From Thermoleophilia bacterium (lineage in GTDB: Bacteria > Actinomycetota > Thermoleophilia > BMS3ABIN01), in the NCBI GenBank assembly GCA_014859345.1, contig JACUUL010000001.1, positions 2,720-66,719 on the forward strand: a DNA stretch of 64,000 nt. The letters run 5' to 3'. A model generated the notes under the pieces. The model was given only the letters and a program-made list of their open reading frames with translations. It searched no databases and was not told the origin of the DNA. Both the position numbers and the translations under genes were made by a program. Shown here one piece after another: positions 12,378-38,079 of the stretch; within the stretch, counting starts at the first letter, position 1, and every line of letters begins with the position of its first letter.

Positions 12378-12848
12378 TTATTCGGATGGCATAGGAGTGT
12401 CGGTTGGCTTGCCGCGCCCCTCGTATGCTTCATCTATCCGGTCCCGTATCTCTCTGAGCGAGAGATCCTCCTTCATCCACTCGCCGATGTCGATCGCCTC
12501 CTCAAGGCATATGGCGCAGCCGGCGGCATGCTCATCAAAATCACCGGTTTTCCTGTCGATGAAGCAGTCCTTGAGGTTCTGGTATTTCTCGGGGTTCTGT
12601 TCGCATCCGCAATAACAAGGAACCGCCTCCAGCGCCTCCGGATAGGTCGCTGCGATCCGGTAGCCCTTCAGAGAGTCTTCGGAGCGGTATACGAACTGCG
12701 GGAAATCGACATCCGCTGCCAGCGTCTCATCGCTCCCCCCGCCGCAGCCGGCCAGCGCCATCGTAGCCATGAGAAGAACCAGGGCGCCGGCGCCCAGCAT
12801 TACTGGTATTCTGTTTTTTATTGACAATATCTTCATTTTTTCAATCAA
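12378..12848 (-). CDS. Lipoprotein with PCYCGC-motif domain
   Basis: Signal peptide plus lipobox (LAGCGG), then VPCYCGCEQNPEKY, which matches the PCYCGC-motif domain family. Additional CxxC (CAIC). Confidence 0.55.
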   Translation of the reverse strand: MIEKMKILSIKNRIPVMLGAGALVLLMATMALAGCGGGSDETLAADVDFPQFVYRSEDSLKGYRIAATYPEALEAVPCYCGCEQNPEKYQNLKDCFIDRKTGDFDEHAAGCAICLEEAIDIGEWMKEDLSLREIRDRIDEAYEGRGKPTDTPMPSE

Positions 12849-12880
12849 ATCATTAATCTGGAAGTTGTAATAGCGTCAGC

Positions 12881-14248
12881 CTAGCATGCTCCGCTCATGG
12901 GAATCAGGAACAGATAGCCAAATCCGGCCGCGGCCGCCAGCACCATGAAACGCCGCGAGGCGATGCCGCCGCGGCTGCTTTCTCCCCCAAGGCCGGATCT
13001 GGTCAGCCTCCATGAGAGATACAGTCCGATCCCCAGGATCACGAACTGAACAGACTTAAGCGGAATGCTGGTGAAATAAACGTTGTCCGGCGGCATGTGC
13101 CCGTCCCAGCCAAAGAGCCGGGACTCGGCCATCACGGTTTCCAGCGAAGGCCAGAGGCCGTACCTGAGATGCTGCAGCGCCAGGGCCAGGAAAACGCCCA
13201 GGGATAATGGCAGATACGAGAAAGCCATTCCGGCGAAGGCCCTTGAATCCCGCGATTGCCGCCAGACCAGCCACGAGCCAAGCAGCTGCACAGCCAGAAC
13301 CGCGCCCACCAGCGCCGAGACGCCGCCAATCACGGAGAGCCGGTAGTTATAGTCGAAGTACGGGAGAGCGAACTGTTGATAGCGGGCAAAAAGCGGGGTC
13401 ATGCGCACCGAGTCCGCGGCCATCAGTCCCAGCAGCAGCAGTGAAAGAAACGCCTCCGGCCGCCCGAACTCCCGGACGCCGGGAAGCCGGCCGCCGCTGA
13501 CGCCAAACGTGGTCCTGATTCCGGAAACGTCCGGCAGGGTGCAGGCGCCGCACATCTGGCACTGGCTGGGCTGCCTCAGGCTCTGGGGCGACTGGCCGGC
13601 CGGACAGGAAACGGCCTTATACCTGACTCCTCCGCCCACGGGCTGAAGCCAGGAGAAAAACGAATACACCCGGGTTATCATTCCCACCGGGCACAGGTAA
13701 CGGCAAAAGGTTCTGCCCTTGTAGAGGACAGTCATGCCGAAGGCCAACAGGATCATGGCGATCAGAATGACGCCGGTGGCGCCGGGATTCTCCTCCAGGC
13801 CGAGAGCCAAAAAGGCCAGGCCAAAGAAGAAAACCGATAACGCTCCCATCCACGGTCCCCAGCTCCTGAGCAGGGAGGGAGCCGCAGACTTGCTACCCAG
13901 ACGGGCAGCAAAATCGGCAGCCGCCCCGAACGGACATATGCCGCACCAGATCCTGCCTCCAAGGAGCAGGATGAACGGCAGGCCAGGCCACCAGAGCTTC
14001 CAGACCACCTCGGTTGCCAGATTCCCTTCCGCCCGCCGCACCGGGTTAAAGGCAAAATATATGAGGACGACCAGTCCCGCGAAAAACAGCAGGTGGAAGG
14101 TGCCCGGATACCACCGCCAGTAAAGCAGCCGGTCCATCCCCGCCCGCGCGGGCCGCGTTGCGGCGGACTTCAATGTTCCCACCGCCGCGCCTTCTGCAGA
14201 TTGTTTCATTATTCCAGGTAGTTCACCCGGATAGCCACCTTGTTCCAA
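12881..14248 (-). CDS. Membrane polyferredoxin-like 4Fe-4S binding protein (NapH/MauN/FixG-like)
   Basis: 455 aa, multiple TM helices. CGICPFG, CRYLCPVG and CQMCGACT motifs are typical of membrane-bound CxxCP polyferredoxins. Confidence 0.5.
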   Translation of the reverse strand: MEQGGYPGELPGIMKQSAEGAAVGTLKSAATRPARAGMDRLLYWRWYPGTFHLLFFAGLVVLIYFAFNPVRRAEGNLATEVVWKLWWPGLPFILLLGGRIWCGICPFGAAADFAARLGSKSAAPSLLRSWGPWMGALSVFFFGLAFLALGLEENPGATGVILIAMILLAFGMTVLYKGRTFCRYLCPVGMITRVYSFFSWLQPVGGGVRYKAVSCPAGQSPQSLRQPSQCQMCGACTLPDVSGIRTTFGVSGGRLPGVREFGRPEAFLSLLLLGLMAADSVRMTPLFARYQQFALPYFDYNYRLSVIGGVSALVGAVLAVQLLGSWLVWRQSRDSRAFAGMAFSYLPLSLGVFLALALQHLRYGLWPSLETVMAESRLFGWDGHMPPDNVYFTSIPLKSVQFVILGIGLYLSWRLTRSGLGGESSRGGIASRRFMVLAAAAGFGYLFLIPMSGAC

Positions 14249-14388
14249 GATGGAGCGGGATCATTTGAGTTGACTATTACCTCGAACAGGTGGGGGCCAC
14301 CCATCCCTCTTCCCATGTGCGATGACACGGTCAGATCCGCTGTCTCGCCCGGCTCTATTGCCGTGGAACTCACGGCCGCCATGGCGTC

Positions 14389-14679
14389 TCAGCAGCCCTC
14401 CAGCCGCTTGACCTCCAGTTCTCCCAGGTGAAGCGGCCCGGTGCCAGTATTTTTCAGCTCAAAATCATGCTCGACCAGTTCCCCCACCGGCACTTCGCCG
14501 AAATCGTACATGGTTTCACTTATCTCAAGCCTGCCACCTGTATCGGCGGTGATTACCGCCGTGCTGGCTTCCTCCTCCCCGCAACCGGCAAGCAGCACCA
14601 TCAGCGCCAGGGCAGAGCCCAGCGCCGCCAGGATCGCGGCTCCCTGCCGTTTGCCGCGAAAATTCACGATAAAGCCCAT
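14389..14679 (-). CDS. DUF1573-domain lipoprotein
   Basis: Signal/lipobox (LLAGCGEE) and MYDFGEVPVGELVEHDFELKNTGTGPLHL, a typical DUF1573 signature. Confidence 0.5.
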   Translation of the reverse strand: MGFIVNFRGKRQGAAILAALGSALALMVLLAGCGEEEASTAVITADTGGRLEISETMYDFGEVPVGELVEHDFELKNTGTGPLHLGELEVKRLEGC

Positions 14680-14927: not shown

Positions 14928-15653
14928 TTGGTCTATAAATCAGAAACCGGTTTTGTTAGAGCTTTTTCTAGCTCTGTCGCCTATAATTCAGATTCGGGCC
15001 GCGCCGCCGGGAAGATGGTCTCTTTCAGCCAGGGAAGTATTGCTGTTGTGATGATTTTTTCCAAAAATTTTCCCAACCGGCATGTGATCATGATGATGGT
15101 CGTCATCATTCAGCTGGGCGTAATCGGTTTGCTCGACATGCTGTTTTTAGTTGAGCTTCCCCTGATGTATGTTTTGTGGCTGGTCCCGATATTTTTCGCT
15201 TTGTTCTTTTTGAGTACGGCCGAAGTTGTGGCGGTAGCGCTGGCCGCCTCCATGATCTGTCTGACCGCGCAAGCGGCCGCCGCGGAAAGGCTGTCTCTGA
15301 TTAATTGCCTTGCCATCGCCTTGTTCGGCATTGCCGCCGCTATTGCAGCGATTCCGGTGCGCCGGTATATCCAAACCGTCAACATGACCCGCAGCGCGCT
15401 GGAAAAATCCCCGCTTGCTCATGCAAAGTTCACGTTTCCCGGATATTCCATCATTGATTGCAACAGCGCCTTCGAAAAGCTGTCAAGCACGATGACCGGC
15501 CCGGGTCCGAAAAAATCGCTTTTTGACGCTTTCCCCCGGGAATCGGCCAATCAGATGGCCGAGCTCATGGATGAAGTCATCGCATCTCACACAGAGACCG
15601 AATGCAAGGAGCTCCGCTTTCCATCTCCCGGTGGCGGCTTTTATTTTTGGTGA
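14928..15653 (+). CDS. Sensor protein N-terminal part: membrane segments plus first half of a PAS domain (interrupted by in-frame TGA at 15651-15653)
   Basis: Hydrophobic TM block, then PAS-like FPGYSIIDCNSAFEKL...ECKELRFPSPGGGFYFW ending at a TGA. Same frame as the next ORF. Confidence 0.35.
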   Translation: MVYKSETGFVRAFSSSVAYNSDSGRAAGKMVSFSQGSIAVVMIFSKNFPNRHVIMMMVVIIQLGVIGLLDMLFLVELPLMYVLWLVPIFFALFFLSTAEVVAVALAASMICLTAQAAAAERLSLINCLAIALFGIAAAIAAIPVRRYIQTVNMTRSALEKSPLAHAKFTFPGYSIIDCNSAFEKLSSTMTGPGPKKSLFDAFPRESANQMAELMDEVIASHTETECKELRFPSPGGGFYFW

Positions 15654-17324
15654 GTGAGCTTTGTCCCACTTTCCCCGTCGGGGAGAGTGACCCCCCGGAG
15701 TGTGAGCATGTTCGCCTATGAGGTCACGGAGTCGATCACCCGGTCCCGGACGCAGGAAGCCGCCCTCAGGGTCAGCGTGTCGGCAATGTCCAGCCTCGAT
15801 TTCGACGAGACAATCATGGTGGTTATGGATGGATTGACTTCTATCACTGGAGTTGATACCGCGGCGCTGTTTCTGGTCGAGGACGATCAGTGGGTAGGAA
15901 AGGCCGGCCATGGGGAAATCTCCACCGGGCTGGTCCAGAAACTTCGATTCCCTTATGAAGCGATAGCCCCGGCCCGCGAAAGCGTTGAAAGAAAAGAAGT
16001 GATCACAATCGATGACGCGGGCAGTGACGGAGGACTCGACGCGGAATATGCAAGAAAACTGAAAGTCAGATCCGCCATGGTAGTGCCGCTGGTCAGCGGC
16101 AGCCGCGCCATAGGCGCCGTTGTTTTGTACCCCACTGGCGAAAAGCGGCTTTTTGATGAAGATCAGATCAAGTTCGCCACGATCATCGGCTCCCATGCCG
16201 CCCTGGCCATAGAAAATTCAATAATCTACCAGAACGAGCTTGCCATCAGAAAGTCCCTGGAAGCCATCGAGTTGGTGTCCGAGGCCGGACTGGTGTCTCT
16301 GGATCTCGAGGAGGTTCTGTTCGAGCTGGTAAACCGGACCCAGGACGTCATGCAGATGGATGCTGCCATGTTCCTGCTCTACGATGCCCGGGAAAATTGC
16401 CTGGTCGGGCGCGCCGCGACCGGCGCCTCGGACAAGGTTCCCATCTCGCAGATAAAGCTCGCGCCGGGAGAAGGGATAGCCGGCCGGGCGTTTCAGGAAG
16501 GCGCTCCCATGAAAATCGACGACATCCGCGGCCACGAGAGCGAGATGTGTGCCGAGATGTGCCCTCTGGCTGATTGCCACACCGGCGACTGTCCGTTCTC
16601 CGAACAGCACGGGATAGTCTCCGTGCTGGCGGTGCCGCTCAGGGTGACAGGCAGGCTGATCGGCGTGCTGCAGATCGGCAGCCGCCGCCAGGCCGCCTTC
16701 TCGGCCAGGGAGTGGGGACTTATCCAGGTGCTCGCCGACCGTGCCTCGCTAGCCGTGCAGAACTCGATGCTACACGAGGAAACCGCGCGGGAGCTGGCCC
16801 GGGTGAAGCTGCTCCGCGAGCTGGCCGATGCCTGCGCCGGCTCGCAGCACAAAGATGCCATCGCCGAGCGGGCCCTGCAGGCGGTTTACGAACGCATGGA
16901 CTGCTCCATCGCCAGCATCTACTGGCTTGACCCGGAAAGGGATGAGCTGGTCAACCTGGCTTTCAGAGGCCACCCGCCCGGCGTGGCGGAGAATCTCAGG
17001 ATTATCGGCCTGGATCGCAGCGAGTTGCTGCTCATACGCGCGGTTAACGAGCGACGCATCATCACTCATGAAGATTTCAACGTTGATAACGCCAGCGAAC
17101 AGGAGGCCGGGATCCTTCGGCAGATGGACATCGGCTACAGCCGCTGCGCCAGAGTTCCCATCGTTTACCAGAATGAGCCGGTGGGAGCCATGGCGGTAGT
17201 CTTCAGGGACAGCCGGGCCTTCACTTCTGGAGAACTGGAAACACTAAAGAGCATCTCGCATCTGCTGGCGGTGGCGTTCAAGAACTCCTCCGTGGACCGG
17301 GAAAGTCCTCTGCTGGAAAGCTGA
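15654..17324 (+). CDS. Multi-GAF domain sensor protein (continuation of a PAS domain, then about 3 GAF domains, no recognisable output domain)
   Basis: Starts immediately after the TGA in the same frame. VSFVPLSPSGRV...SMFAYEVTESITRSRTQEAAL reads as the C-terminal half of a PAS fold. Repeated GAF-like blocks follow. Confidence 0.55.
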   Translation: MSFVPLSPSGRVTPRSVSMFAYEVTESITRSRTQEAALRVSVSAMSSLDFDETIMVVMDGLTSITGVDTAALFLVEDDQWVGKAGHGEISTGLVQKLRFPYEAIAPARESVERKEVITIDDAGSDGGLDAEYARKLKVRSAMVVPLVSGSRAIGAVVLYPTGEKRLFDEDQIKFATIIGSHAALAIENSIIYQNELAIRKSLEAIELVSEAGLVSLDLEEVLFELVNRTQDVMQMDAAMFLLYDARENCLVGRAATGASDKVPISQIKLAPGEGIAGRAFQEGAPMKIDDIRGHESEMCAEMCPLADCHTGDCPFSEQHGIVSVLAVPLRVTGRLIGVLQIGSRRQAAFSAREWGLIQVLADRASLAVQNSMLHEETARELARVKLLRELADACAGSQHKDAIAERALQAVYERMDCSIASIYWLDPERDELVNLAFRGHPPGVAENLRIIGLDRSELLLIRAVNERRIITHEDFNVDNASEQEAGILRQMDIGYSRCARVPIVYQNEPVGAMAVVFRDSRAFTSGELETLKSISHLLAVAFKNSSVDRESPLLES

Positions 17325-19930: not shown

Positions 19931-21184
19931 TCAGGAATATCTCTTCAGGGTTTGGCAGAAAAGCTCCTCCAGTTCAGGATTGCTTATCTCTTTCGAAACC
20001 AGCTCGCCCTTGACCTTGCGGGCCTTCCTTTCCCTTTTGATGAGTTTCTCGCCCCCGCCTGTAATGTTGAGCAGGACCGGGTCTGTCTTTGGCAGCGAAC
20101 CAGCGGCCTTGACAAGCGACGCCACCGCCACAGCCGCGGCCGGAACTATATCCAGGCCTTCCGTTTCTTCAAACAGTTCTGCCGCCTCCCGGGCCTCCTC
20201 GTTGGTTATGCCGTAGAAATCACCGCCGCACGCCTCGAGCGCGTCGTATACGCCTCCCTGCACCGAGTAGGCCGGATACCGGGACGACAGTACCCGGGTG
20301 GAGATCATTTCTATCAACCTCGAGTCCAGATCCTTGGCAGCCAGTTCCCTCCTGTGATGCTTCCAGGCCCAGTACATGGGAGCGAAGGGCAGGTTCTGCG
20401 CCAGATGAAGCTGGGGAAGACTGTTGCCGAAACGCCCGTCCGCCAAAAACCTCTCAGCCATCTCCCAAGACGCGATCGCCCCGGCGCCGCTTCCTACCGC
20501 CTGGAAATAATGCGCCGGCAGCCTGCCCATCGCCGAAACTGCTTCCAGGAGCACCACCCCCAGGCCGTCCCGTTTGGCGACGTTCTTCACCCCTCCCTCA
20601 AATGGCATTCCGGAGACCCGGGCGACCCTTCCGGCCAGATCTATGGCATCGGAATAATCGCCGTCCTTGACCACCAGGGTAAGCACACCCGCGGAATCGG
20701 TGTGGTACCACATCTCCTTCCAGCACATGAAGGGGACAACTATAATCACCGGATAGCATGCCTTGGCGGACAGGTAAGCGAAAGATCTTGCGGTATTTCC
20801 GGCTGAGGCCACAACCAGCCCTTCCACGCCATTCTCCCTGGCATTCTCCATTACCACCGCTGCCTCGAACTCCTTGAACGTGCAGGTCTCCGTAAGCGCT
20901 CCTATTTCCGGGGTGTAACCCGTGTATGCAACATGGAGATCGTCAAGCCCGAGTGCCCGGGCAAGACCCTGTGAGCGGTATATCACCGGACCGGGCATTT
21001 TGAATGCCGGCTCGTGGACGGGCAGCCAGTTGAAGCGCCAAATGCCCGGGGCGCCGCTTTCGCGAAACAGCCTGTCGCGGTACTCGGTGACCAGCAGGGA
21101 ATTCGGGCAATGCTCGCAAAAGGCGCAATAGATCTCCTCAAGCGCCTTGCCGCATTTCCTGCATCTTATACGAAAATGGCTCAT
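19931..21184 (-). CDS. Threonine synthase-like PLP enzyme with N-terminal zinc ribbon; candidate cysteate synthase
   Basis: Real start ATG at 21184, forming an ATGA overlap with the HdrD-like stop. CRKCG...CAFCEHC zinc ribbon, TFKE PLP-lysine region, Gly-rich SAGNTARS. Adjacent ComDE-like gene supports a sulfonate (cysteate to sulfopyruvate to sulfoacetaldehyde) route. Confidence 0.5.
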   Translation of the reverse strand: MSHFRIRCRKCGKALEEIYCAFCEHCPNSLLVTEYRDRLFRESGAPGIWRFNWLPVHEPAFKMPGPVIYRSQGLARALGLDDLHVAYTGYTPEIGALTETCTFKEFEAAVVMENARENGVEGLVVASAGNTARSFAYLSAKACYPVIIVVPFMCWKEMWYHTDSAGVLTLVVKDGDYSDAIDLAGRVARVSGMPFEGGVKNVAKRDGLGVVLLEAVSAMGRLPAHYFQAVGSGAGAIASWEMAERFLADGRFGNSLPQLHLAQNLPFAPMYWAWKHHRRELAAKDLDSRLIEMISTRVLSSRYPAYSVQGGVYDALEACGGDFYGITNEEAREAAELFEETEGLDIVPAAAVAVASLVKAAGSLPKTDPVLLNITGGGEKLIKRERKARKVKGELVSKEISNPELEELFCQTLKRYS

Positions 21185-22383
21185 AAGCAGCCTGCCAGAA
21201 GTTCCATGATGTCCGTTATCCTGACCTGCTTTTCGTATCCCTCCATGGCCTCGTTCACCTTTGAATAGCACGCGGGACAGCTCAAAATGAACCTGTCCGC
21301 GTTCTTCTCCCAGGCCTCGTCTATAGCCAGCCTGCCAATTGCCACCGCATTCTCATGAAACACCTTCCGGGCTGCTCCCCCGGCTCCGCAGCATCGCGAA
21401 TCCCTGCGGTTCCGGTCGAACTCGAGGAGCTTAAGGCCCGGTATCGCCCTCAGGACCTCTCTGGGTTCCTCGATCACGCCCACCCCCCTGCTCAGGTAGC
21501 ATGGGTCGTGGTAGATAACCTTCCCGTTAAATCCACTTTTTAGCTTAAGCGTGCCTTCGGCCAAAGCCCGGCTGGCAAATTGCGTCATGTGCCTTATGCG
21601 GAAGGGTAGCTCCTTTCCCAAAAAGAGCGGCCATTCCCTGGCCATCATGTTCACGCAGCAGGGACAGGAACATATAAGTGTCTCGACCCCCTTATCCTGA
21701 TAAGCGGATACGAGCTGTTTGACAAGACCTTCCAGCAGATCGAACTGGCCGGTTATGAAAAGGGGAAAGCCGCAGCAGACCTCTTCCTCGGCGCCAAGCA
21801 TTGTAAACGGCTCTCCGGCAGCGGCCAGCACGAGCGCGTCTCCCCTTACCATGGGATGCGCTTCGTACGCCCCCGTGCATCCAACGTAGTATGCAATCTT
21901 CGCTTTCGCGACAGGCTCCACTCCCTCCGGGAACCAAGGCGAAAACCTCTCTGACGCCGGCTTGTCGTACACATTTCCCGTCTCCTTAACAAAACCGGGT
22001 ATCAATTTCTGTGGACCGATGGGGCCAAGGCCCCTCCTCACCATTTCGCGCCTCAGCATGGGCCATAGCCTCTGGGTGTAGATGCCTACCGGGCAGACTT
22101 CGCCGCACGCGCCGCAGGTTGTGCACTCGAAGATCGCCTTGGTGAACTCCTCGAGCAGCTCCTGGTTCACCCTTCGCCGGCCGAACAGCATGCCCTTGAG
22201 GCCCTGGGTCGACTTGATGAACTCCCTGAATATGCGTATCTTCTCACGGGGAGATACGGAAGCGTCGCCGGTCACATCCTGAACAGGACATTTCTTCAGG
22301 CATTCGCCGCACTGGGTGCAGGCGTCGATTTCGATCACCTGTTGACGCGAGAGGCAGCTGGTGAATGAGTCTTTCTTAATCAT
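21181..22383 (-). CDS. HdrD/DsrK/GlcF-family iron-sulfur protein (two 4Fe-4S ferredoxin motifs plus two CCG domains)
   Basis: CTQCGECLKKCPV and CTTCGACGEVCPV, then VCCGFPLF...CSCPCC and RCCGAGG...SCPAC (CCG-domain signatures). Confidence 0.7.
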   Translation of the reverse strand: MIKKDSFTSCLSRQQVIEIDACTQCGECLKKCPVQDVTGDASVSPREKIRIFREFIKSTQGLKGMLFGRRRVNQELLEEFTKAIFECTTCGACGEVCPVGIYTQRLWPMLRREMVRRGLGPIGPQKLIPGFVKETGNVYDKPASERFSPWFPEGVEPVAKAKIAYYVGCTGAYEAHPMVRGDALVLAAAGEPFTMLGAEEEVCCGFPLFITGQFDLLEGLVKQLVSAYQDKGVETLICSCPCCVNMMAREWPLFLGKELPFRIRHMTQFASRALAEGTLKLKSGFNGKVIYHDPCYLSRGVGVIEEPREVLRAIPGLKLLEFDRNRRDSRCCGAGGAARKVFHENAVAIGRLAIDEAWEKNADRFILSCPACYSKVNEAMEGYEKQVRITDIMELLAGCL

Positions 22384-23047
22384 GCAAGAGACCCTCGGTT
22401 TCCTCCTGCCTTCTTCTGGACTCGATCGTTGTGAAGGGAGCCGTGAAGATGTGGGTGGGCAGGAAGGCCAGAACGACGAATGCCAGCAGGAAATGCAGCG
22501 GGAAAAGCCAGTTTTGCGGCGGTGCGATTATCCGGAAGGAAAATATGCCCATCATGAAATTTTTCGCAGCTGTTATGTCGGCCCTGAAGTACTGGGCCAG
22601 AAACAGACCGGTGAGCCCCAGGAGCAGGATGGTGGCGGTGAGCATCAGGTTGTAGATGGAGCTGTACTTCATTCTTTCCCACACCAGCCGGTAAATCAGG
22701 ATATAGGCCAGCGAGGCGATCAGGGCCACGCCGGCATAAGGCTTGATTTGCGCCAGCACAATCATCCAGCGGGGGACGTCATAGAAGAAAAATCTCAGAT
22801 GGCCGAGAAAGACCAGAATGAACGAGATATGGAAAACCCATGATCCCGGCCATATGCCCGGATTGGCATTGAACAGCCTCCTGAGCAGGAAAATATCCAG
22901 TATCGCCAGCAGGATGGAGGAAATGGACTGCTTGCCACCAGGCGCCGGAGATCCATCTCCCCGGATGTAGATCAGAAACCGGACGGTTACGCCTACATAG
23001 AAAACGAGCAGCGCCGCATAAGCGACAATCGCCAGCAGAATGGCCAT
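22376..23047 (-). CDS. NarI/HdrE/DsrM-like membrane di-heme cytochrome b subunit
   Basis: 223 aa, 5 TM helices, His pairs in TM helices (FHISFILVFLGHL; PLHFLLAFVVLAFLPTH). Overlaps the downstream HdrD-like gene by 8 nt, as in hdrED/dsrMK pairs. Confidence 0.55.
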   Translation of the reverse strand: MAILLAIVAYAALLVFYVGVTVRFLIYIRGDGSPAPGGKQSISSILLAILDIFLLRRLFNANPGIWPGSWVFHISFILVFLGHLRFFFYDVPRWMIVLAQIKPYAGVALIASLAYILIYRLVWERMKYSSIYNLMLTATILLLGLTGLFLAQYFRADITAAKNFMMGIFSFRIIAPPQNWLFPLHFLLAFVVLAFLPTHIFTAPFTTIESRRRQEETEGLLHD

Positions 23048-23050
23048 CGC

Positions 23051-23389
23051 TCACCTTTCCAGCTCCAGGATTTCTTGCATGAACTCGATATGGGCGTCTT
23101 TCGGCAGGCGAAATCCGGCCTCCGCCTCCAGCGCCATCAATATCCCGGCCGGGACCGGACAGGACACGTGCTTTAAATGCCTGTCCGCGGCCCGGTAAAC
23201 CGGATTTTCCATGAACCTGACGAAGGCGTCCATACGGTTCAGCTCTTTAATGTCGCCGGCCATGCGGGTCACGTGCTCGCAGTCGCTCTTCATTTCAACG
23301 CTGTATGGCTCATTTTTGCCGCCGTTTCGTATGCGTACCCAGGTGATGAAACCGCAGGCCCCAGAGGTTATCCTGACGGAGGTGGTCAC
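23051..23389 (-). CDS. Hypothetical 112-aa protein, translationally coupled between RACE and HdrE-like genes
   Basis: 4-nt overlap with the RACE stop and a 3-nt gap to the HdrE-like start. Contains 4 Cys and 6 His. No known family recognised. Confidence 0.3.
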   Translation of the reverse strand: MTTSVRITSGACGFITWVRIRNGGKNEPYSVEMKSDCEHVTRMAGDIKELNRMDAFVRFMENPVYRAADRHLKHVSCPVPAGILMALEAEAGFRLPKDAHIEFMQEILELER

Positions 23390-25362
23390 CCTTTTACCGG
23401 CACGGCCGAGCCGGATTCCTCAAGCATTTTCTTTACATGAGGAAATTTGTCTTTCATGTGGGGTATATGCATGGCCTGTATGAACTCTTTCTCGAATTCC
23501 GGCTCCACTGCTATTTCCAAGTACTCGAGTTCTCTGGCCTGCTTCCTGGCCTCCAGCCGCTTGGTCCTGCTCAAAAGGGCCATTATGGCTCCATCGCCTG
23601 CGGCATTGCCCACCGCGTAAACCTTCTCCGGATCGCAATCAGGAAACATCCCCAGTGTCATCGCGGATTTCTTGTGTATGTAACTTCCAAAGGCCCCGGC
23701 CAGTATGACCTTTTCCACTTTCGCTATGCCCATTTTTTTCATCATCAGCTTGGCGCCGGTGTAAAGGGCCGCCTTGGCCAGCTGCAGCGCCCGGACGTCC
23801 GCCTGCGCGATGGTAATGTCTGTGCCAATAGATGTTTCCTTCGCCCAGGCCAGGACATATTCGAGTTTCCCGTCATGGTCCCGGCGAACTCTCTCCGTAT
23901 CCAGATCCTTGGCCATTCTTCCGGATTTGTCTATTATGCCTGCCTTGAACATCTCCGCCACTACATCGATTATCCCGGAGCCGCATATGCCCTTTGCCTC
24001 TATGTCGCCCTTGATTTCGGTATGCCATTCCTCTTTGCCAATTACTTTATACACGGGCTCCCTGGTCTGCGGGTCGATCTTCACTTTCTCTATGGCGCCG
24101 GGGGCGGCCCTCATGCCGAATTTTATCTGGGCTCCCTCAAATGCCGGACCCGTGGCGCAGGAAGTCGAGGAGAGATGTTCCTTGTTTCCGAGCAGGAGCT
24201 CGCCGTTCGTGCCAATGTCGATAATCAGAACCTTCTCTTTCATCCGGTACGGCTCCTCAGCAATGAGGACGCCCACGTTGTCCGCGCCCACGAAACCCGC
24301 CTCGATCGGCAGGACATGAACATAGGACGCATGGTTAATCCCTATATCCATATCCCGGGCCTTGATGTTAAGGTCGTTCTGCACCGCCGGGATGAAAGGC
24401 GCCAGGCCGATATACACCGGATTAAGGCCCAGGAATATATGGTGCATGGCTGTATTGAAGACTATTGTCATGTCCACTATCGACTGGCCGCCGGGCTTCG
24501 CGTCCATTTCGTAATTCGCTGTCAGCCTGCCGATCAGGTCGTTCAGGCCGTCTATCAAGGCCTTCTGCATGGTCTCGAGCCCGCCCTCGGTCATCATGGC
24601 GTAGGTGATCCGGGACATCACGTCCTCGCCGTAAGGAACCTGGGGATTCATCATCGACTCGGTTCTGACCACCTCGCCGGTTGTCAGCTCGCATAGGTAC
24701 GCGGCCACGGTAGTGGTCCCCACGTCCACCGCCAGCCCCAGGGAGGATTCCACGAAACCCGGTTCCACTTTCACTATCTCGGAATCCATCCATATGGAGA
24801 CTGTAATTTTCCAATCACCTTCCCTGATGACGTCCTGCAGGCCAGTAAGCACGGCATAGTCCATCGAGAGGCCCGTGAGGCCGTATTCCGCCTCGATCTC
24901 GGCTTTCAGCCTTTCCAGGTCACCCACGATAGTTTTTTCCAGAGTGGGTTTCTCCAGCTCCACGAAGTATTTCCTTACCGCCGGCTCAATAGGCACGGTC
25001 ACCTTCCGGGCCGTCTTTCTGACTATCTGCTTTCCGGCACGGGATTTCTCGGGAACGAAGAGCTTGACGTCTCCATGGAGCTCGGCGGCGCAGGCGAGCC
25101 TGATATTCTCACCGTCGGCGGGTTTTATGAACTTCTTTTCCCCATCCGTAATGGGACTCAGATTTGTCATCCGGGAATCAATATTGTCTTTCTCGAAATA
25201 ACCTTCATCCACCCGGACCTTGCATTTGCCGCAGGTTCCCTTGCCTCCGCATATGGATTCGAGATCCACTCCCAGTTGCTGCGCGGCCTCGATCAGGCTT
25301 TTTCCCTCTTCCACTTCGCCGCGCCGGCCCGAGGGCTGAAAAATTACCTTATGCTTGCGCAT
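23386..25362 (-). CDS. RACE-type reductive activator of corrinoid enzymes (2Fe-2S ferredoxin plus ASKHA ATPase domain; RamA/RACo-like)
   Basis: 658 aa. N-terminal plant-type ferredoxin (CGGKGTCGKCKV) followed by a large ASKHA/DUF4445-type ATPase domain. Confidence 0.8.
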   Translation of the reverse strand: MRKHKVIFQPSGRRGEVEEGKSLIEAAQQLGVDLESICGGKGTCGKCKVRVDEGYFEKDNIDSRMTNLSPITDGEKKFIKPADGENIRLACAAELHGDVKLFVPEKSRAGKQIVRKTARKVTVPIEPAVRKYFVELEKPTLEKTIVGDLERLKAEIEAEYGLTGLSMDYAVLTGLQDVIREGDWKITVSIWMDSEIVKVEPGFVESSLGLAVDVGTTTVAAYLCELTTGEVVRTESMMNPQVPYGEDVMSRITYAMMTEGGLETMQKALIDGLNDLIGRLTANYEMDAKPGGQSIVDMTIVFNTAMHHIFLGLNPVYIGLAPFIPAVQNDLNIKARDMDIGINHASYVHVLPIEAGFVGADNVGVLIAEEPYRMKEKVLIIDIGTNGELLLGNKEHLSSTSCATGPAFEGAQIKFGMRAAPGAIEKVKIDPQTREPVYKVIGKEEWHTEIKGDIEAKGICGSGIIDVVAEMFKAGIIDKSGRMAKDLDTERVRRDHDGKLEYVLAWAKETSIGTDITIAQADVRALQLAKAALYTGAKLMMKKMGIAKVEKVILAGAFGSYIHKKSAMTLGMFPDCDPEKVYAVGNAAGDGAIMALLSRTKRLEARKQARELEYLEIAVEPEFEKEFIQAMHIPHMKDKFPHVKKMLEESGSAVPVKG

Positions 25363-25582
25363 CTCTCTTCCTCCATGAAGTTTCGGATATCCCTTTAATC
25401 ACTGTTGCCGTAATCATCATCCTGAGGGATAAATGAGGGGACGGTTACCCCCGACTGCCGGATTACCGGCCGTCCTGTAACCGAAGCAGATGGTAAAAAT
25501 GCGGGGCAAACTTACCGACCGTCCCCCAATCGCGCCAATGGGGAGGTGGCGATATCCGATGTCACGTTTAACTCTGTTTCCT

Positions 25583-26266
25583 CTATTCGGCCTCTGCCTC
25601 TTGTTTAAGCCTTTTGAGAGAGCTGACCATGTCTATGGCGTCCTTGAGCGCGTTGCTGGCGTCGGCCGCGTATCCGTCTGCGCCCCACTTGTCGGCTATG
25701 TCCTGTGACGCCGGGGCGCCGCCTATCATTATTATACAATCTGGGTTCTTCTCCTTGAGATCATGGATAACCTTCTCCATGCCCGACATGGTCGTCGTCA
25801 TCATGGCGGACAGGCAAACAAGATCCGAATCCGTCCGGAGCTGCTCTTCAACGAACTTGTCGAGGGGCACGTCCCTGCCCAGGTCATAGACCGTGAAGCC
25901 GGCCACGTCGAACATCATCTTGACTATGTTTTTGCCGATATCGTGGACGTCTCCTTCCACCGTGCCGATTACCACCGACCCCCTGACACCCAGATCCAGC
26001 TGTTCGACATGGGGCCTGAGAATATCCAGCCCGGCATACAGGGCATCCGCGCACATCAGCAGCTCGGGGACGAAATATTCCTCCTCCTCGAAAAGCCTGC
26101 CGACTTCCTCCATGCCGGTCACCAGTCCGTCGAATATCGCGTCATTGGCCTTGAGGCCCTCGTCCAGCGCTATCTGCGCCCACTCCCTGGCTGTGTCCTC
26201 GTCGTACTCGATAACGGCGTTTTTGAGATTTTCCAGTATTTCCTGTTTCCGTTCTTCCGTAGCCAT
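25583..26266 (-). CDS. Corrinoid (cobalamin-binding) protein, MtaC/MtbC-like
   Basis: 227 aa. B12-binding DxHxxG motif (GDVHDIGKNIV) and N-terminal helical cap domain. Confidence 0.8.
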   Translation of the reverse strand: MATEERKQEILENLKNAVIEYDEDTAREWAQIALDEGLKANDAIFDGLVTGMEEVGRLFEEEEYFVPELLMCADALYAGLDILRPHVEQLDLGVRGSVVIGTVEGDVHDIGKNIVKMMFDVAGFTVYDLGRDVPLDKFVEEQLRTDSDLVCLSAMMTTTMSGMEKVIHDLKEKNPDCIIMIGGAPASQDIADKWGADGYAADASNALKDAIDMVSSLKRLKQEAEAE

Positions 26267-26270
26267 TAGC

Positions 26271-27320
26271 TCACCTCGCGTAGTTTCTAACCGCGTCCAT
26301 CATCGCCTCGAAGTTCCGGGGCGGAACCGTGGGCCATATATCACAGCCCGGCCACACGGCGCTGACCCCGTCGTCCAGGCATTTATTTATCGTTTGCTCC
26401 ACCAGTTCCGGAGTGCCGGATACCAAAACGTTGAACGGGTCGTAATTTCCGAATACCAGGGCATCGGGACCAAGCTCCTCCCTGGTCTTGATTATTTCGT
26501 TTCTCTGGTCCACGCTGATCGCATCGGCCCCGGCTTCCACCATGGCGCCGACTATCGGGTTTGTCTTGCCGCAGATATGGTTTACGCTGGGCACCGTGAT
26601 TTCAGCAAATATCTTCTTCAGGTTGGGCAGAATCAGTTTCTTGAAGATCCGGGGGCTAAGCACATCCGAAGTCGCCCCCATCTCCCTGACGGTAAGGTAG
26701 TCGATGCCCGCTTTTTCGTACCGCTTTAGCACCGCTATGATGACATCAGCCAGCTTGTCGAGCAGCGCCTCCACCTTGTCGGGCTTCTTGAATGAGAGCT
26801 TGAGGAGGTCGTTGAGCTCCATAATCTGTCCTGCCAGGGTAAACGGGCCCAGCACATAGCTCCCGACCGGCACCTCACCCTTGAGTTCCTCCTTGGCCAG
26901 CCCTATCGCTTCGCACACAAGGGGAACCCGGCCCTTCTCGGCCACATCGGCCGGCATGGAGAGATCCATTTCATCTTCGCTATGGATGACCTTCTCCTTG
27001 ATCGTGGGGTAAAACAGGTCCTCCGTGTGGGCATAGGTGTTTATCTCGCATCCGATGGCCTCGGCCTCGACGCAAAGATCAAACGGCACCACGGCGCAGT
27101 CGAACCCGAAGAGTTTCGGAGTGGAAACGGCCGCTTCGGCCATCTGCCGGCTATCCAGGTGCACTTCAGCGAACTTGTAGCCCAGCTTCTCGAGTCCGGC
27201 GGTGGTCACGTTGCCCAGGCCGCTGAAGCAGGCCGGCCTGTCCGTCTTCTCGCCAGCAAACACGCTGGCGACCCTTTCTTTGGCGGTCATCGTCTTAAGC
27301 TCCTGTTCTTTCCTGTTCAT
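26271..27320 (-). CDS. MtaA/CmuA-family (UroD-fold) zinc methyltransferase 1
   Basis: 349 aa. UroD-family N-terminus, zinc ligand motif VNHICGKT and downstream PGCDIWP, as in methylcobamide:thiol methyltransferases. Confidence 0.75.
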   Translation of the reverse strand: MNRKEQELKTMTAKERVASVFAGEKTDRPACFSGLGNVTTAGLEKLGYKFAEVHLDSRQMAEAAVSTPKLFGFDCAVVPFDLCVEAEAIGCEINTYAHTEDLFYPTIKEKVIHSEDEMDLSMPADVAEKGRVPLVCEAIGLAKEELKGEVPVGSYVLGPFTLAGQIMELNDLLKLSFKKPDKVEALLDKLADVIIAVLKRYEKAGIDYLTVREMGATSDVLSPRIFKKLILPNLKKIFAEITVPSVNHICGKTNPIVGAMVEAGADAISVDQRNEIIKTREELGPDALVFGNYDPFNVLVSGTPELVEQTINKCLDDGVSAVWPGCDIWPTVPPRNFEAMMDAVRNYAR

Positions 27321-27326
27321 GTTTTT

Positions 27327-28289
27327 TCACTTTTTTGCCTTGGCTTTCCGGCCCCCACCGGCTTCGAGTTTCTCAATGAAGTCAGGGAAATATTTCCGCA
27401 GGGGCAGATCCGGGTTATCCGGTATCTGCCCGGTCTCATCGTACACCAGGGTGGAAAGCAGTACGTGGGCGGTCGCCACGGCCGGAAATATCCTGGGCGC
27501 CGTCACTATTGGGCCGTAAAGATTGAAGTCGCTCCACAGGGCGGTTGACATTCCCTGCGCCACCGCGTCCATTGCCCTGAAGCCTTCCTGCCCCCAGGCA
27601 TCTTTCGCTTCTTGCCACATATGTGTCCCGTTCGAGTACGCCGCGCCGCAGGGGTAGCCGAGCTCCTCCTTTATCATCTTGTTGGCAAGCAACGAAAAGG
27701 ACGTGGACGGCAGATTCATGACAGAGGTGTCCACGATTACGGTATCGAAGGCGTCCGCTCCCTGCTCGAGTATGCTCTTCAGGGATTTCAGCCTGCCCTT
27801 GGGAGACTGGTCCTCGTCATCGAACGCCTGGATTATGACGTGTTTGATTCCAAGGTTCTTGAGGGTTTCGACCTGTCCCCTTATATCCTTGTCCCAGGCA
27901 GTGATGCTGTTGTAAAGAAACTTGTCCTGGGCCCCGATCTCGGCGACGTACTCAGTGGCTTTTGCGCGTTTTTTGGGAACCCACATATCGATGCCGAAAG
28001 GCATGTCAGTCGTTTCGGTATAGAAATCTATGTAAATCCTGGCTTCATCCGGAGAATTAGCCACCATGGCGACCATGGCGGGTATGCCGGTGGCCCGGGA
28101 GAGTTCTTCCTGTTTCCTGATTAGATCAACGGCTTTTTCCCGGTCGAAGTCTCCTTTTCTGTCACGCAGTATCCTGTCTTTGTTATGGAACATCGATGCG
28201 ATCAGCAACGGCGGGTTGTCGCCGGGCTGCCCGCCGATCTTTATCCCGTCAAACTCAAAGACTTTCTGCGGAGTCGCAAACCTGAACAT
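27327..28289 (-). CDS. MtrH-like (pterin-binding) methyltransferase, probable methylcorrinoid:tetrahydrofolate methyltransferase
   Basis: MtrH-family similarity begins at MFRFATPQKVFEFDGIKIGGQPGDNPPLLIASMF (ATG at 28289). The longer track ORF would overlap the AhpD-like gene, so the internal start is used. Confidence 0.65.
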   Translation of the reverse strand: MFRFATPQKVFEFDGIKIGGQPGDNPPLLIASMFHNKDRILRDRKGDFDREKAVDLIRKQEELSRATGIPAMVAMVANSPDEARIYIDFYTETTDMPFGIDMWVPKKRAKATEYVAEIGAQDKFLYNSITAWDKDIRGQVETLKNLGIKHVIIQAFDDEDQSPKGRLKSLKSILEQGADAFDTVIVDTSVMNLPSTSFSLLANKMIKEELGYPCGAAYSNGTHMWQEAKDAWGQEGFRAMDAVAQGMSTALWSDFNLYGPIVTAPRIFPAVATAHVLLSTLVYDETGQIPDNPDLPLRKYFPDFIEKLEAGGGRKAKAKK

Positions 28290-28350
28290 CACCTCTCCTT
28301 GGATATTCTCAGGCCGGCGGAGGGAATTCCCTCCGCCGGTCTTTTTTGCC

Positions 28351-28950
28351 CTAGTAGATCCCGTGGTCCCATTTCGGCTCGGGGAGATACTCCCACGGTT
28401 CGCCTTTGCGATGCTTGGCCTCGATGTCGAGGCATTTGACCGCGTATTCGAATGCGTACGGTATGCCCGGACCGCCAGGTACAAAGCCGGCCAGAATCAT
28501 CCCCACGGACGCCGCCTCGAATATTTCCTCGGTGGTCGCTCCCGCTTCTATGGCCGGAACCACGTGAATGATGCACCGGGGAGAGCAATAGGAAACGCCG
28601 CCGGCCATGAACATCAGTTCCTTGATCTTTTTCGAAAGGGCGCCGTCGCCGAACACGCTGGCGTAGAAATCGGCGAAGGTCTTGCCCGGCACCGGCGTTA
28701 CCGTGTTGATCGTCTGGAACATCCTGGGCGTGAAGCCCATGACGTTTTTCATGTATTCGTTGCATTCCTCCGGCGACATCGCCGCGCATTCTTCCATCGT
28801 CATCGCTTTCATGCTGCTCTCAGCCATTTCTGCTCCTTTCTCGCTTTCGTCCCCGCCCTCCCGCTTCGAAGTGGAGGCGAAAAATTTTTTAAGTTCGTCC
28901 CAGAAATTCATCTCTTCGGCTCCTCTCCCGGCTTTTATAAGCCAGAACAC
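28351..28950 (-). CDS. Carboxymuconolactone decarboxylase/AhpD-like family protein
   Basis: CSPRCIIHV (CxxCxxxH AhpD-core motif). Confidence 0.55.
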   Translation of the reverse strand: MFWLIKAGRGAEEMNFWDELKKFFASTSKREGGDESEKGAEMAESSMKAMTMEECAAMSPEECNEYMKNVMGFTPRMFQTINTVTPVPGKTFADFYASVFGDGALSKKIKELMFMAGGVSYCSPRCIIHVVPAIEAGATTEEIFEAASVGMILAGFVPGGPGIPYAFEYAVKCLDIEAKHRKGEPWEYLPEPKWDHGIY

Positions 28951-28989
28951 CCAGCAGCTTTTCCCCTAAGTCATCGCACCTCCTCCCAC

Positions 28990-30018
28990 CTAAAGCTTCC
29001 ATTCTCTCGCCGTCCGGATGAATGCCTCAATGTTCTCGTAAGGCACGGTTGGCGGTATATCGCAGCCAGGCATCAACACAAACCCTCCGTCCGTCCCCGC
29101 CGTCTCGATTATCCGGCGCGAAACCTCTTCCACCTGCGCCGGGCTTCCCTGGTCCATGACGGCCACAGGATCAATATTGCCGCCGAAGCACATTTTCCCG
29201 TGCAGCGTCTCCTTCGCCTTGGCGATATCAGTCTTGTGGTCCAGGCTTATGCAGCTTGCCCCCGTATCGACCATCAGGTCAAGCCTGTCGGTGGTGTTCC
29301 CGCATATATGCACCAGGGTGTGCCTGTCATGCTGCTTTGCCCAATCGGTGAACTTTTTAAGGTATGGCAGGGCGAATTCCCGAAACTGTTTTTTGGAGAT
29401 GAGGTCTCCCGAAGCGGTTGGGTCTGCCAGCGAGATGACTTCGAGCGTCCCGTCCCGCACCAGGGGCTCGAATAAATGGATAAGAAGGCCGGTAGTGAAA
29501 TCTGCCATTTTGTGAACGAAGTCCGGCCGTTTGAAGGTGGCCTTCATCATGGTCTCTTCGCCCACAAACCGGGCGGCCAGAGTATATGGACCCCAGGCGG
29601 TCATCGTCACAACATATTCGTCTCCAATCTTCTTTTTGGTCTCCCTGAGGGCTTCTTTGACTGTATTTATCACCTCGTTCCTGTCCAGAGCCGAGTAGTC
29701 CAGTTTATCGATATCCTCGGCAGTGTCGACCAGGTGCTCCTTTAGATCGGGAGCGCCCATCTCTCGGTACTTTATCCCCCCGCCAAACGCCGAAGCGTGA
29801 AAGTTGTTATAACCCGAGCCCGCGTACACGATGTCACAGAGGAGCTTCCCCGACGTAGTAACCAGCATGTCTGTCATCTTCCCCACATCGGTCGCCAGTT
29901 CCTCGAAGGAGGTGCCAAAATTTCTGATGCTCCACATGCCTGCCCCGAACAGGGTGACCGGCACCCTCTCGGTCTTCTTGCCCTCATAAGCATCCAGGAT
30001 AATCTGTTTTGGTGTCAT
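28990..30018 (-). CDS. MtaA/CmuA-family (UroD-fold) zinc methyltransferase 2
   Basis: 342 aa. VHICGNTT and PGCDIPP zinc-ligand motifs. Paralog of 26271..27320 but clearly divergent. Confidence 0.75.
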   Translation of the reverse strand: MTPKQIILDAYEGKKTERVPVTLFGAGMWSIRNFGTSFEELATDVGKMTDMLVTTSGKLLCDIVYAGSGYNNFHASAFGGGIKYREMGAPDLKEHLVDTAEDIDKLDYSALDRNEVINTVKEALRETKKKIGDEYVVTMTAWGPYTLAARFVGEETMMKATFKRPDFVHKMADFTTGLLIHLFEPLVRDGTLEVISLADPTASGDLISKKQFREFALPYLKKFTDWAKQHDRHTLVHICGNTTDRLDLMVDTGASCISLDHKTDIAKAKETLHGKMCFGGNIDPVAVMDQGSPAQVEEVSRRIIETAGTDGGFVLMPGCDIPPTVPYENIEAFIRTAREWKL

Positions 30019-30922: not shown

Positions 30923-30923
30923 G

Positions 30924-31454: not shown

Positions 31455-31659
31455 CGCAAATCCTCCTATTTTGTTGTTACCGCAGTTATAGTATAACAAT
31501 AGTTCAGTTTAGGAGCCACGTTTTCACCCTTGCCCCTGTCTCCATGATGGTCAAACAGTCAGTTATGACCCGGAATAATGCCCCGTTTACGATCCGGAAG
31601 ATCGTTCCCGGCCCATGATTTTCTGATACCCGGGATTCTCCATCATAAACCCGGTTTGA

Positions 31660-35848: not shown

Positions 35849-35954
35849 TTTGCATACCTTTCGCGGTTTTATCGTGCGGATCGTGCCCGGTCAAACATCG
35901 CCTGCTGAAGAAAGCAGCCAGGATATTCGAAGGGAAAGAAATTATAGTACACTC

Positions 35955-38030: not shown

Positions 38031-38079
38031 GCCTTGCCAAATCTGTTTTTCAAGCTTTCAGTCATTCGGTATTACGTGC

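Follow-up and report, generated by a model that had tools for sequence, protein, structure and literature searches.

The locus considered here poses a simple question: is a sensor gene that is interrupted by a single in-frame TGA a broken gene, or is its UGA translated? The gene lies in a 64-kb window (the whole stretch of DNA analyzed, from a Thermoleophilia bacterium). According to the ORF list and its translation, the ORFs at 14928-15653 and 15654-17324 share one frame with nothing but the TGA intervening, and the peptide flanking the stop is exactly as quoted in the initial annotation. The terminator of the sensor gene itself is the TGA at 17322-17324. At the other end, the TTG at 14928 is only the mechanical start of the ORF, and the true start is probably ATG 15051, the choice made in GenBank, or ATG 15015. 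GenBank carries the N-terminal piece as hypothetical protein MBE0428261.1 (IBX61_00095; 200 amino acids from ATG 15051) and the C-terminal piece as MBE0428262.1 (538 amino acids), limited to 15708-17324. The features are collected in Table 1.

Table 1. Features of the interrupted sensor gene (positions in the window)
Feature	Position	Strand	Content
Whole sensor gene, one frame	15015..17324	+	~4 TM helices, PAS, three GAF
N-terminal part	15015..15650	+	Membrane region and PAS strands A-beta to mid H-beta
Candidate recoded codon, in-frame TGA	15651..15653	+	Preceded by a nearly invariant Trp codon, TGG
C-terminal part	15654..17324	+	Remaining PAS H-beta, I-beta, linker helix, three GAF; basis includes P0001
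Candidate recoding signal, SECIS-like 10-bp hairpin	15667..15689	+	CACUUUCCCC-GUC-GGGGAGAGUG

The two pieces had initially been read as one gene whose stop falls within a continuous PAS fold, and this reading was borne out by two predictions that cross the stop. The match to Pfam PAS_4 (PF08448; 32.3 bits, gathering cutoff 23.1) extends without interruption over residues 145-240 of the joined protein and profile positions 16-108 of 110; with numbering from ATG 15015, the stop is residue 213. The AlphaFold model of the joined protein (mean pLDDT of 83.7) gives the PAS domain five strands; residue 213 falls within H-beta (E209-211, E215-219), and I-beta spans 229-234. Pfam places three GAF domains C-terminal to the PAS domain and identifies no output domain in the joined protein, as previously stated, nor in ~45 orthologs. 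These orthologs, of 735-790 amino acids and from Thermoleophilia/Actinomycetota MAGs, cover 96-98% of the joined protein; they have a common architecture and are syntenic, located beside a DUF1573/Fer4_5/PCYCGC cluster and cobalamin biosynthesis genes.

The alignment with orthologs proposed in the initial annotation showed that all ~45 continue uninterrupted across the stop position, and that the residue aligned with the TGA is hypervariable. Arg is the most common in the main alignment (17 sequences), followed by Ser (6), Asn (6), Asp (3), and Trp (2), plus Gly, Gln, His, and Lys; Cys, encoded by TGC, occurs only in P0008. Orthologs added by profile searches contribute Leu, Arg, Asn (three times), and Ser, and another has Gly. 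The Trp residues are those of P0009 and P0010 (TGG in L127). At the identical column, TGA is found in the window and in two further lineages, P0041 (L001/L004) and P0121 (L130-L132). The P0041 allele occurs on contigs from NCBI, Logan, and ENA (4 in all) and the P0121 allele in three samples; the TGA copies come from independent samples and assemblies, and orthologs align over the stop in all three. Neighbor-joining trees set the window in a clade different from that of P0041 and P0121, which indicates that, as judged from these sequence trees, TGA at this column arose at least twice. The 17 codons 3' of each TGA retain the family motif I/V-N/S-F/L-I/V-P....G..TPRSV, the codon before the stop is UGG in 3/3 TGA copies, and no further stops or frameshifts occur in any of the three. 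The third case was found with a profile of 28 N-terminal parts; the N-terminal fragment of the window, used as a query, matched itself only. Comparison of metagenome contigs with the family alignment returned, among the matches listed, distant GAF proteins (≤35% identity) and no orthologs. A profile search of the full library yielded mostly giant multi-GAF proteins and gained few partial orthologs.

A downstream SECIS-like hairpin, suggested as a search target in the initial annotation, is present at 15667-15689, and each of the other TGA copies also has a hairpin after its stop. The window hairpin has a perfect 10-bp stem, a GUC loop at 15677-15679, a 13-nt spacer from the UGA, and a predicted stability of -15.2 to -16.7 kcal/mol. 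The L004 hairpin has a perfect 8-bp stem, a UUCG loop, and a 13-nt spacer (-10.6 kcal/mol), and that of L131 a perfect 9-bp stem, a CCCCCA loop, and an 11-nt spacer (-13.4 kcal/mol). The distances from UGA to apical loop (23, 21, and 20 nt in the window, L004, and L131, respectively) give the TGA-linked hairpins SECIS-like spacing. The fraction of synonymous recodings that fold equally well or better was 0.005 for the window, 0.015 for L004, and 0.085 for L131, against a median of ~0.44 in 23 orthologs with sense codons at the column (Mann-Whitney p=0.006). The hairpin is missing from the closest sense-codon relatives (L122, GGG; L133, GGC; L125, AGC; L126, TCA), and P0008, the only Cys ortholog, has a hairpin at the same place that ranks among the strongest. 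Such hairpins are partly a by-product of Pro...Gly codons, and equally stable ones occur at 2-7 other sites within the same genes. A role as a transcription terminator was rejected, there being no U-run 3' of the hairpin.

Because the TGA occupies the same codon in three lineages and a stable RNA hairpin follows each, the UGA is best interpreted as being recoded or read through in some programmed form, with a probability of roughly 0.7 on these sequence comparisons. Programmed read-through was among the options first listed, and it is the class of explanation favored by the recurrence of the column and the hairpins. Recent nonsense mutation (a pseudogene) and sequencing error, the first two options listed, are not supported as leading explanations, given that the TGA column recurs and that hairpins and conserved codons co-occur with it. 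In the proposed mechanism, ribosomes would decode the UGA as an amino acid and produce a full-length membrane PAS-3xGAF sensor of ~757-769 amino acids, with the hairpin 11-13 nt 3' of the UGA as the putative cis signal. In the selenocysteine version, the hairpin would be exposed at the mRNA entrance when the UGA is in the A site and would be recognized there by SelB carrying Sec-tRNA(Sec). The recoded site would be an exposed position of PAS strand H-beta where nearly any residue appears to be tolerated. On balance, the UGA and its hairpin can plausibly be regarded as a cassette that evolved at least twice in PAS-GAF sensors of uncultured anaerobic Actinomycetota, for either selenocysteine insertion or read-through.

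Selenocysteine insertion of the SECIS type is the specific mechanism put forward, tentatively and at clearly less than even odds, from the form and position of the hairpins. The consensus for bacterial SECIS (bSECIS) elements sets the apical loop at 3-9 nt, the upper stem at 4-16 bp, and the minimum free energy at ≤-7.5 kcal/mol (PMC13188914, Fig. 2); it also asks for 16-37 nt from UGA to apical loop and for a G within the first two nucleotides of that loop, usually as GG or GU (PMC13188914). The window hairpin agrees with the consensus on 4/4 criteria, and the flat statement in the initial annotation that selenocysteine is unlikely is therefore not upheld, with selenocysteine itself still a candidate. 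The hairpins of the window, L004, and L131 all fall within the ranges for loop, stem, free energy, and distance; the loop G is present in the window (GUC) and absent from L004 (UUCG) and L131 (CCCCCA). The consensus is permissive, and 6/23 sense-codon orthologs also pass all of its criteria; conversely, a subset of genuine bSECIS elements fail the consensus model (PMC13188914). Rfam searches around the two UGAs examined gave chance matches only and no SECIS family, even at E values up to 10. The 64-kb window, 60 ORFs of which were annotated with Pfam, contains no selA, selB, selC, selD, or known selenoproteins, and a tRNA scan found no tRNA-Sec in 23 ortholog loci. Known selenoproteins almost always align selenocysteine with Cys, at a redox site; in this family, Cys is found at the column in P0008 alone. 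Literature searches returned nothing relevant on selenocysteine in Thermoleophilia or related classes or on PAS/GAF selenoproteins. A selenylsulfide between Cys197 (strand G-beta) and residue 213 was considered and dropped as speculation: the register of the model pairs residue 213 with E199, and the Cys is also present in orthologs with Ser at the column.

Read-through independent of SelB is slightly less likely than selenocysteine insertion. A near-cognate tRNA, most likely tRNA-Trp, would occasionally decode the UGA, so that a little full-length sensor is made with Trp at this residue; most of the product would be the truncated membrane fragment, and the stop would throttle expression or switch between isoforms. 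No selenocysteine machinery need be assumed, the hypervariable column accepts Trp naturally in two orthologs, and all three stops are UGA preceded by UGG. The three hairpins keep their stems and differ in loop sequence, which fits a role for structure only, and the conserved codons immediately after the stop point to translation of this region. The spacing fits less well. Structures that stimulate frameshifting or read-through lie ~8 nt (range 5-9) from the A-site codon so as to touch the ribosome; the three hairpins, with spacers of 13, 13, and 11 nt, lie outside this range and would seem too distant for mechanical action. No precedent on a bacterial chromosome is known to us for read-through linked to a hairpin. 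The basal level of UGA read-through is low, so the product would be mostly truncated, and the persistence of a TGA from which 8/9 point changes restore sense is left unexplained.

Independent recent nonsense mutations are improbable. The three copies would then be decaying pseudogenes or population variants, and the shared column and hairpins coincidence or a mutational hot spot. In favor of this explanation, the window copy evolves 1.5-2.5x faster than its sister P0002, which could mean relaxed constraint, with a significant excess of unique substitutions (39 vs. 16 in the N-terminal part and 72 vs. 39 in the C-terminal part) and departures at 3/25 conserved N-terminal columns. Codons one step from TGA (TGG, TGC, TCA, CGA, AGA) are found at the column in relatives, and the hairpins owe part of their stem to Pro...Gly codons. 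Against this, neither half of P0041 is accelerated and its conserved columns are retained, and other stops or frameshifts number 0 across the three copies. With ~175 of 760 codons a single step from a stop, a repeat hit on one codon has p ~0.006, and a third would be rarer still; the association of hairpin with TGA is itself at p ~0.006. The alleles are also identical over several samples and assemblies.

At similarly long odds, the gene may be a tolerated split gene in which translation ends at the UGA and restarts at the adjacent GUG/AUU/AUC or the next Met/Val, giving two polypeptides that reassemble or act separately. Two genes are given both by gene callers and in GenBank; the stop is followed directly by GUG in the window and by AUU or AUC in the two other TGA copies; GGAG lies 8 nt 5' of ATG 15708 in the window; and P0211 (on a 203.7-kb contig), which comes from a two-GAF subfamily and may be a fourth TGA case, likewise starts at the first Met past the column. 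However, the Ile/Val after the column is merely a conserved family residue, and the break falls in mid-strand in the modeled PAS H-beta and not at a natural domain boundary. A restart further downstream would leave 16-18 codons untranslated, yet these are conserved. A split gene gives the hairpin no role and does not explain the recurrence of the column.

An error of sequencing or assembly, or a reassigned code with TGA as sense, has negligible probability, and the only point in its favor is that a MAG shows an in-frame stop at all. The stop did not arise in assembling the MAG: the Logan assembly of SRR11917416 (L121), made independently, matches the window at every position over 7100 nt, including the TGA. 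Two other lineages also have TGA at the column, one in 4 assemblies and the other in 3; TGA ends 33/61 ORFs in the window, the sensor gene among them; the window lacks the features of a reassigned code (tables 4 and 25); and a scan of the window for other TGA-split genes gave no convincing case, only neighboring genes or off-frame open stretches. Plain nonsense mutation, error, and code change are thus all disfavored by the recurrence of the TGA, the linked hairpins, and the conserved codons after the stop.

If the UGA is recoded in either of the two ways, the recoding would be of a kind so far undescribed. The selenocysteine version may be the first case of this residue in a signaling PAS domain, with Arg, Ser, or Asn at the position in homologs; the use of selenocysteine would then reach signaling domains and non-Cys positions, and sensor abundance or redox chemistry would be tied to selenium. 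The read-through version may be a hairpin-linked UGA read-through on a bacterial chromosome that sets the ratio of truncated fragment to full sensor; programmed read-through associated with a hairpin would then extend to a bacterial chromosomal regulatory gene, having been documented mainly in viruses and eukaryotes. Such cases are readily overlooked, because selenoprotein discovery pipelines demand a Cys homolog and annotation pipelines split the genes into a "hypothetical protein" and a "GAF domain protein," as GenBank does here. The convergent TGA-hairpin pairs form a compact cassette of ~45 nt that is directly testable in reporters.

Several known systems offer points of comparison. In Escherichia coli fdhF, the UGA is followed 11 nt downstream by a minimal hairpin that is bound by SelB. 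Genes of this type resemble the sensor gene in having an in-frame UGA with coding sequence conserved on both sides and a stable intra-ORF hairpin, here 11-13 nt past the UGA with the apical loop at 20-23 nt, and one homolog of the sensor has Cys at the site. Unlike known bacterial selenoproteins, the ~45 homologs have mostly Arg, Ser, or Asn there, and the product is a signaling PAS-GAF sensor and not an oxidoreductase; unlike consensus bSECIS elements, 2/3 loops lack the G and no Rfam SECIS family matches. Programmed stop-codon read-through is exemplified by the UGA of the phage Q-beta A1 protein and by retroviral and alphavirus UGA/UAG codons, at which a 3' stem-loop or pseudoknot stimulates it. 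The likeness consists of a leaky UGA, an unchanged frame, RNA structure on the 3' side, and the expectation of two products. To our knowledge, however, stimulation by such structures has been described from viruses and eukaryotes, with spacers of ~8 nt, whereas this is a bacterial chromosomal gene with a spacer of 11-13 nt. Its stop also falls in mid-domain, so that the short product would be an incomplete fold rather than a working shorter isoform. The prfB gene (RF2) is a bacterial chromosomal gene with a conserved in-frame UGA that must be bypassed for the full protein to be made. A slippery CUU and, upstream, a Shine-Dalgarno-like element carry prfB translation into the +1 frame; in the sensor gene, the frame is unchanged and the element linked to the UGA is a hairpin on its 3' side. 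Membrane-anchored PAS-GAF sensors without an output domain (PAS_4 with GAF/GAF_2/GAF_3) share their domain content and order with the sensor gene, as confirmed by Pfam and the AlphaFold model; the difference is an internal UGA in three lineages.

As judged from its sequence and that of its relatives, the split sensor gene encodes a signaling protein and has an in-frame UGA that recurs among relatives and is associated with a hairpin, at a column that is non-Cys in homologs. The TGA is the sole separator of two ORFs in the same frame (14928–15653 and 15654–17324), as the initial annotation had described, and the flanking peptide quoted there matches the window translation exactly. TTG 14928 is merely the earliest possible start; ortholog N termini and the 200-aa GenBank call favor ATG 15051, with ATG 15015 as a possibility. 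Counted from ATG 15015, the joined protein has 769 aa. Pfam PAS_4 matches residues 145–240 (32.3 bits, cutoff 23.1; profile positions 16–108 of 110), so the PAS similarity crosses the stop, and three GAF domains follow; Pfam found no output domain in the joined protein, in agreement with the earlier reading. An AlphaFold2 model on the ortholog alignment (mean pLDDT 83.7) contains about four N-terminal helices and then a PAS fold with strands at 135–140, 145–149, 201–203, 209–211/215–219, and 229–234. The stop is predicted to lie in the middle of strand Hβ, which, with the PAS_4 match, bears out the continuous fold initially proposed. GenBank divides the gene into MBE0428261.1 (hypothetical) and MBE0428262.1 (GAF domain-containing) of the "Thermoleophilia bacterium" MAG, and a Logan assembly of SRR11917416 (L121) is 100% identical to the window across 7100 nt, including the TGA.

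A search with the joined protein identified ~40 full-length orthologs (735–790 aa, 43–60% identity, 96–98% query coverage) in MAGs of Thermoleophilia, Actinomycetes, and Gaiellales. These run uninterrupted through the position and neither end nor start there. The Trp preceding the stop is near-invariant. The alignment suggested in the initial annotation as a means of finding the residue matching the stop returned a hypervariable column, with Cys only once (R17, S6, N6, D3, W2, and one each of G, C, Q, H, and K; later-found orthologs contributed one L, one R, three N, one S, and one G), which rules out a conserved Cys/Sec site across the family. Two other proteins are interrupted at this column. 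P0041 (557 aa) starts where the C-terminal fragment of the window starts; its gene is present both in Logan SRR13170412 (L001) and in the 194-kb NCBI contig JAJYOG010000002.1 (L004) and reads ...EGHSNFW-TGA-INLIPVSFEGRRTPRSVALFAFEV in a single frame. P0121 (202 aa, ending ...GGRSTFW) was located by a profile search built from 28 N-terminal parts, and its contigs from three samples (L130–L132), identical in this gene, read ...STFW-TGA-INFIPVSPQGRGTPRSVTLFAFDITDAV. In NJ trees, the window copy and P0002 (locus L122; column codon GGG) are sisters in a clade with Ser, Trp, Arg, and Cys forms, whereas P0041 and P0121 are non-sister members of another clade, with Ser-AGC, Ser-TCA, Gly-GGC, and Gln-CAA clade-mates. 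The TGA therefore arose independently at least twice, and the P0041/P0121 clade either gained it a further time or kept it over a long period. A single substitution would turn approximately 175 of 760 codons into a stop, and the chance that another, independent nonsense mutation falls in the codon already struck is ~0.006.

None of the three TGA copies contains further stops or frameshifts. The family motif I/V-N/S-F/L-I/V-P....G..TPRSV is retained in the 17 codons 3' of each TGA, which argues for their translation. P0041 is unaccelerated in both halves and retains the conserved columns. The window copy carries 1.5–2.5x more unique substitutions than its sister P0002 (lineage-specific substitutions 39 vs 16 in the N-terminal part and 72 vs 39 in the C-terminal part, significant) and departs from 3 of 25 conserved N-terminal columns; this acceleration could stem from weakened constraint, from adaptation, or from a faster rate across the genome. 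P0211 (355 aa; 203.7-kb ENA contig, 203,709 nt), a C-terminal fragment of a two-GAF subfamily relative (cf. P0129, 570 aa), opens with the first Met past the column, like the annotated fragment of the window, and may represent a fourth interrupted lineage. In L133 (ENA ERZ25039554 contig_55668), the P0122 ortholog breaks off near residue 296, and the neighboring Rrf2, DUF1573, and CbiJ genes are likewise in pieces; the pattern resembles an indel-rich assembly more than a biological truncation. At L015 (6001–9435), the ortholog tblastn match spans 3.4 kb vs ~2.2 kb, suggesting an insertion or duplicated segment within or beside the gene.

A perfect hairpin occupies the same place in all three TGA copies, including the window, where the initial annotation had proposed looking for a SECIS-like element. 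Because conserved Pro and Gly-Arg codons supply part of the pairing, the 17 codons after the column were resampled synonymously, using each gene's own codon usage, in the 26 orthologs with DNA. The fraction of recodings folding at least as well was 0.005 for the window, 0.015 for L004, and 0.085 for L131 (P0121), vs 0.026 to 0.96 (median ~0.44) in the 23 sense-codon orthologs. The hairpin was associated with TGA (Mann–Whitney p 0.006; Fisher combined p 0.0005), with the caveats that the window, L004, and L131 genes hold 7, 5, and 2 further 33-nt segments of equal stability, and that the Ser ortholog L128 has a stronger local fold, accounted for by its amino-acid sequence. The closest sense-codon relatives, L122, L133 (GGC at the column), L125, and L126, lack the hairpin (local folds −9.8, a different fold; −3.0; −7.3; and −6.8). 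Among the strongest hairpins is that of the only Cys ortholog (TGC; −14.6; synonymous fraction 0.041). Directly 5' of the TGA, a terminator-like element (15621–15648, +) comprises a 5-bp CCAUC-UCCC-GGUGG hairpin and then CGGCUUUUAUUUUU; it is probably incidental because the other two TGA lineages lack the U-run, and such sites in the region number 3 against 3.0 expected by chance.

The sensor divergently adjoins a conserved cluster encoding a DUF1573/Ig-like small protein, an ORF of 41–57 aa, a Fer4_5 iron-sulfur membrane protein (430–480 aa), and a PCYCGC-motif protein, with Rrf2 and DnaJ-domain genes farther out; the conserved synteny suggests a functional link. Most orthologs abut cobS and cbiJ of the cobalamin biosynthesis cluster. 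In the window and the P0002 contig, an NMT1-type binding protein follows the sensor instead, and in the window ~14 kb of corrinoid-methyltransferase genes separates it from cobS. Most ortholog loci lack this module here, and cobS comes directly after their sensor gene. Its products are an MtrH-like methyltransferase, two URO-D/MtaA-like proteins, a B12-binding corrinoid protein, the RACo reductive activator, DUF6951, and a CCG/4Fe-4S (HdrD-like) protein. The module points to an anaerobic life that depends on corrinoids and says nothing direct on selenium. The cobalamin cluster encodes CobS, CbiJ, a CbiG-CbiH-like fusion, CbiF/L-type methylases, CbiE/T, and CbiD, together with CbiO, CbiM, a CbiX-CbiC fusion, CobB/CobQ, CobD, CobA, and CobU. 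At 30512–31499 (−), a DsrE-like ORF (144 aa) adjoins and slightly overlaps an OsmC-like ORF (191 aa). Both families include selenoproteins in other bacteria; no in-frame TGA was seen in these two ORFs.

Features of the sensor locus and its surroundings (window coordinates; L numbers are ortholog loci)
Feature	Position	Strand	Details
Divergent cluster	12378–14679	−	Synteny also in L002, L121, L123, L125–L129
Sensor gene, PAS + three GAF	15015–17324	+	Residue 1 set at ATG 15015
In-frame TGA	15651–15653	+	Residue 213 of joined protein
Window hairpin	15667–15689		CACUUUCCCC-GUC-GGGGAGAGUG; 10 bp; spacer 13 nt; dG −15 to −17 kcal/mol
L004 hairpin			CCGUCUCU-UUCG-AGGGACGG; 8 bp; spacer 13 nt; dG −10.6 to −13.5 kcal/mol
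L131 hairpin			CCCCGUUUC-CCCCCA-GGGACGGGG; 9 bp; spacer 11 nt; dG −13.4 kcal/mol
Corrinoid-dependent methyltransferase module	21181–30018	−	Between sensor and cobalamin cluster
Anaerobic cobalamin biosynthesis and cobalt-uptake cluster, large	31660–49812	−	
Cobalamin riboswitch	49643–49812		Rfam RF00174, 60 bits; upstream of cobU end of cluster

Collectively, these results suggest that recoding of some form operates at the UGA (probability about 0.7). To our knowledge, the only established bacterial mechanism combining an in-frame UGA with an intra-ORF hairpin ~11 nt 3' is selenocysteine insertion, in which a SECIS-type hairpin and SelB would direct Sec to the codon; this specific assignment is tentative, at rather less than even odds. 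The bSECIS consensus comprises an apical loop of 3–9 nt on a stem of 4–16 bp, G within the first two loop positions, a UGA-to-loop distance of 16–37 nt, and an MFE of −7.5 kcal/mol or lower (2026 review, PMC13188914). The window hairpin has all four features, so the initial view of selenocysteine as unlikely was premature; those of L004 and L131 have all save the loop G. The consensus is permissive, as 6 of 23 sense-codon orthologs pass as well. No Rfam SECIS model gave a match, no selA, selB, selC, or selD lies within the 64-kb window, and no tRNA-Sec was found in the ortholog loci examined.

The main rival, somewhat unlikely, is SelB-independent near-cognate read-through, probably by tRNA-Trp. 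It is favored by a column that tolerates any residue, the natural occurrence of Trp-Trp in two orthologs (TGG in L127), a UGG directly 5' of the UGA in all three copies, and conservation of hairpin stems but not loops. Its weak point is spacing: structures that stimulate frameshifting or read-through should be too distant to act at 11–13 nt from the A-site codon. Termination followed by reinitiation is an improbable explanation; GUG, AUU, or AUC comes right after the stop, but neither the hairpin nor the recurrent column is accounted for. Independent pseudogenization is as poorly placed, failing on the same two observations, and a simple recent neutral nonsense mutation, an option raised initially, is very unlikely as a common explanation since the column is shared, the hairpin goes with the TGA, and the flanks are intact. 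Sequencing or assembly error, also raised initially, and a genetic-code change were rejected as negligible: independent assemblies agree and the TGA recurs in other lineages, TGA terminates 33 of 61 window ORFs, the sensor included, and the window holds no other TGA-split gene.

Existing pipelines miss such a case: annotation cuts the gene in two, and selenoprotein searches depend on homologs with Cys. Compared with known systems, the 11–13-nt spacing of the sensor hairpins matches that of the E. coli minimal SECIS. Counting against Sec, the homologs are, unlike those of nearly all known selenoproteins, overwhelmingly non-Cys at the column, the three loops differ among themselves, and the sensor is not a redox enzyme. 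Whichever decoding mechanism applies, the sensor UGA would vary known recoding in a new way.
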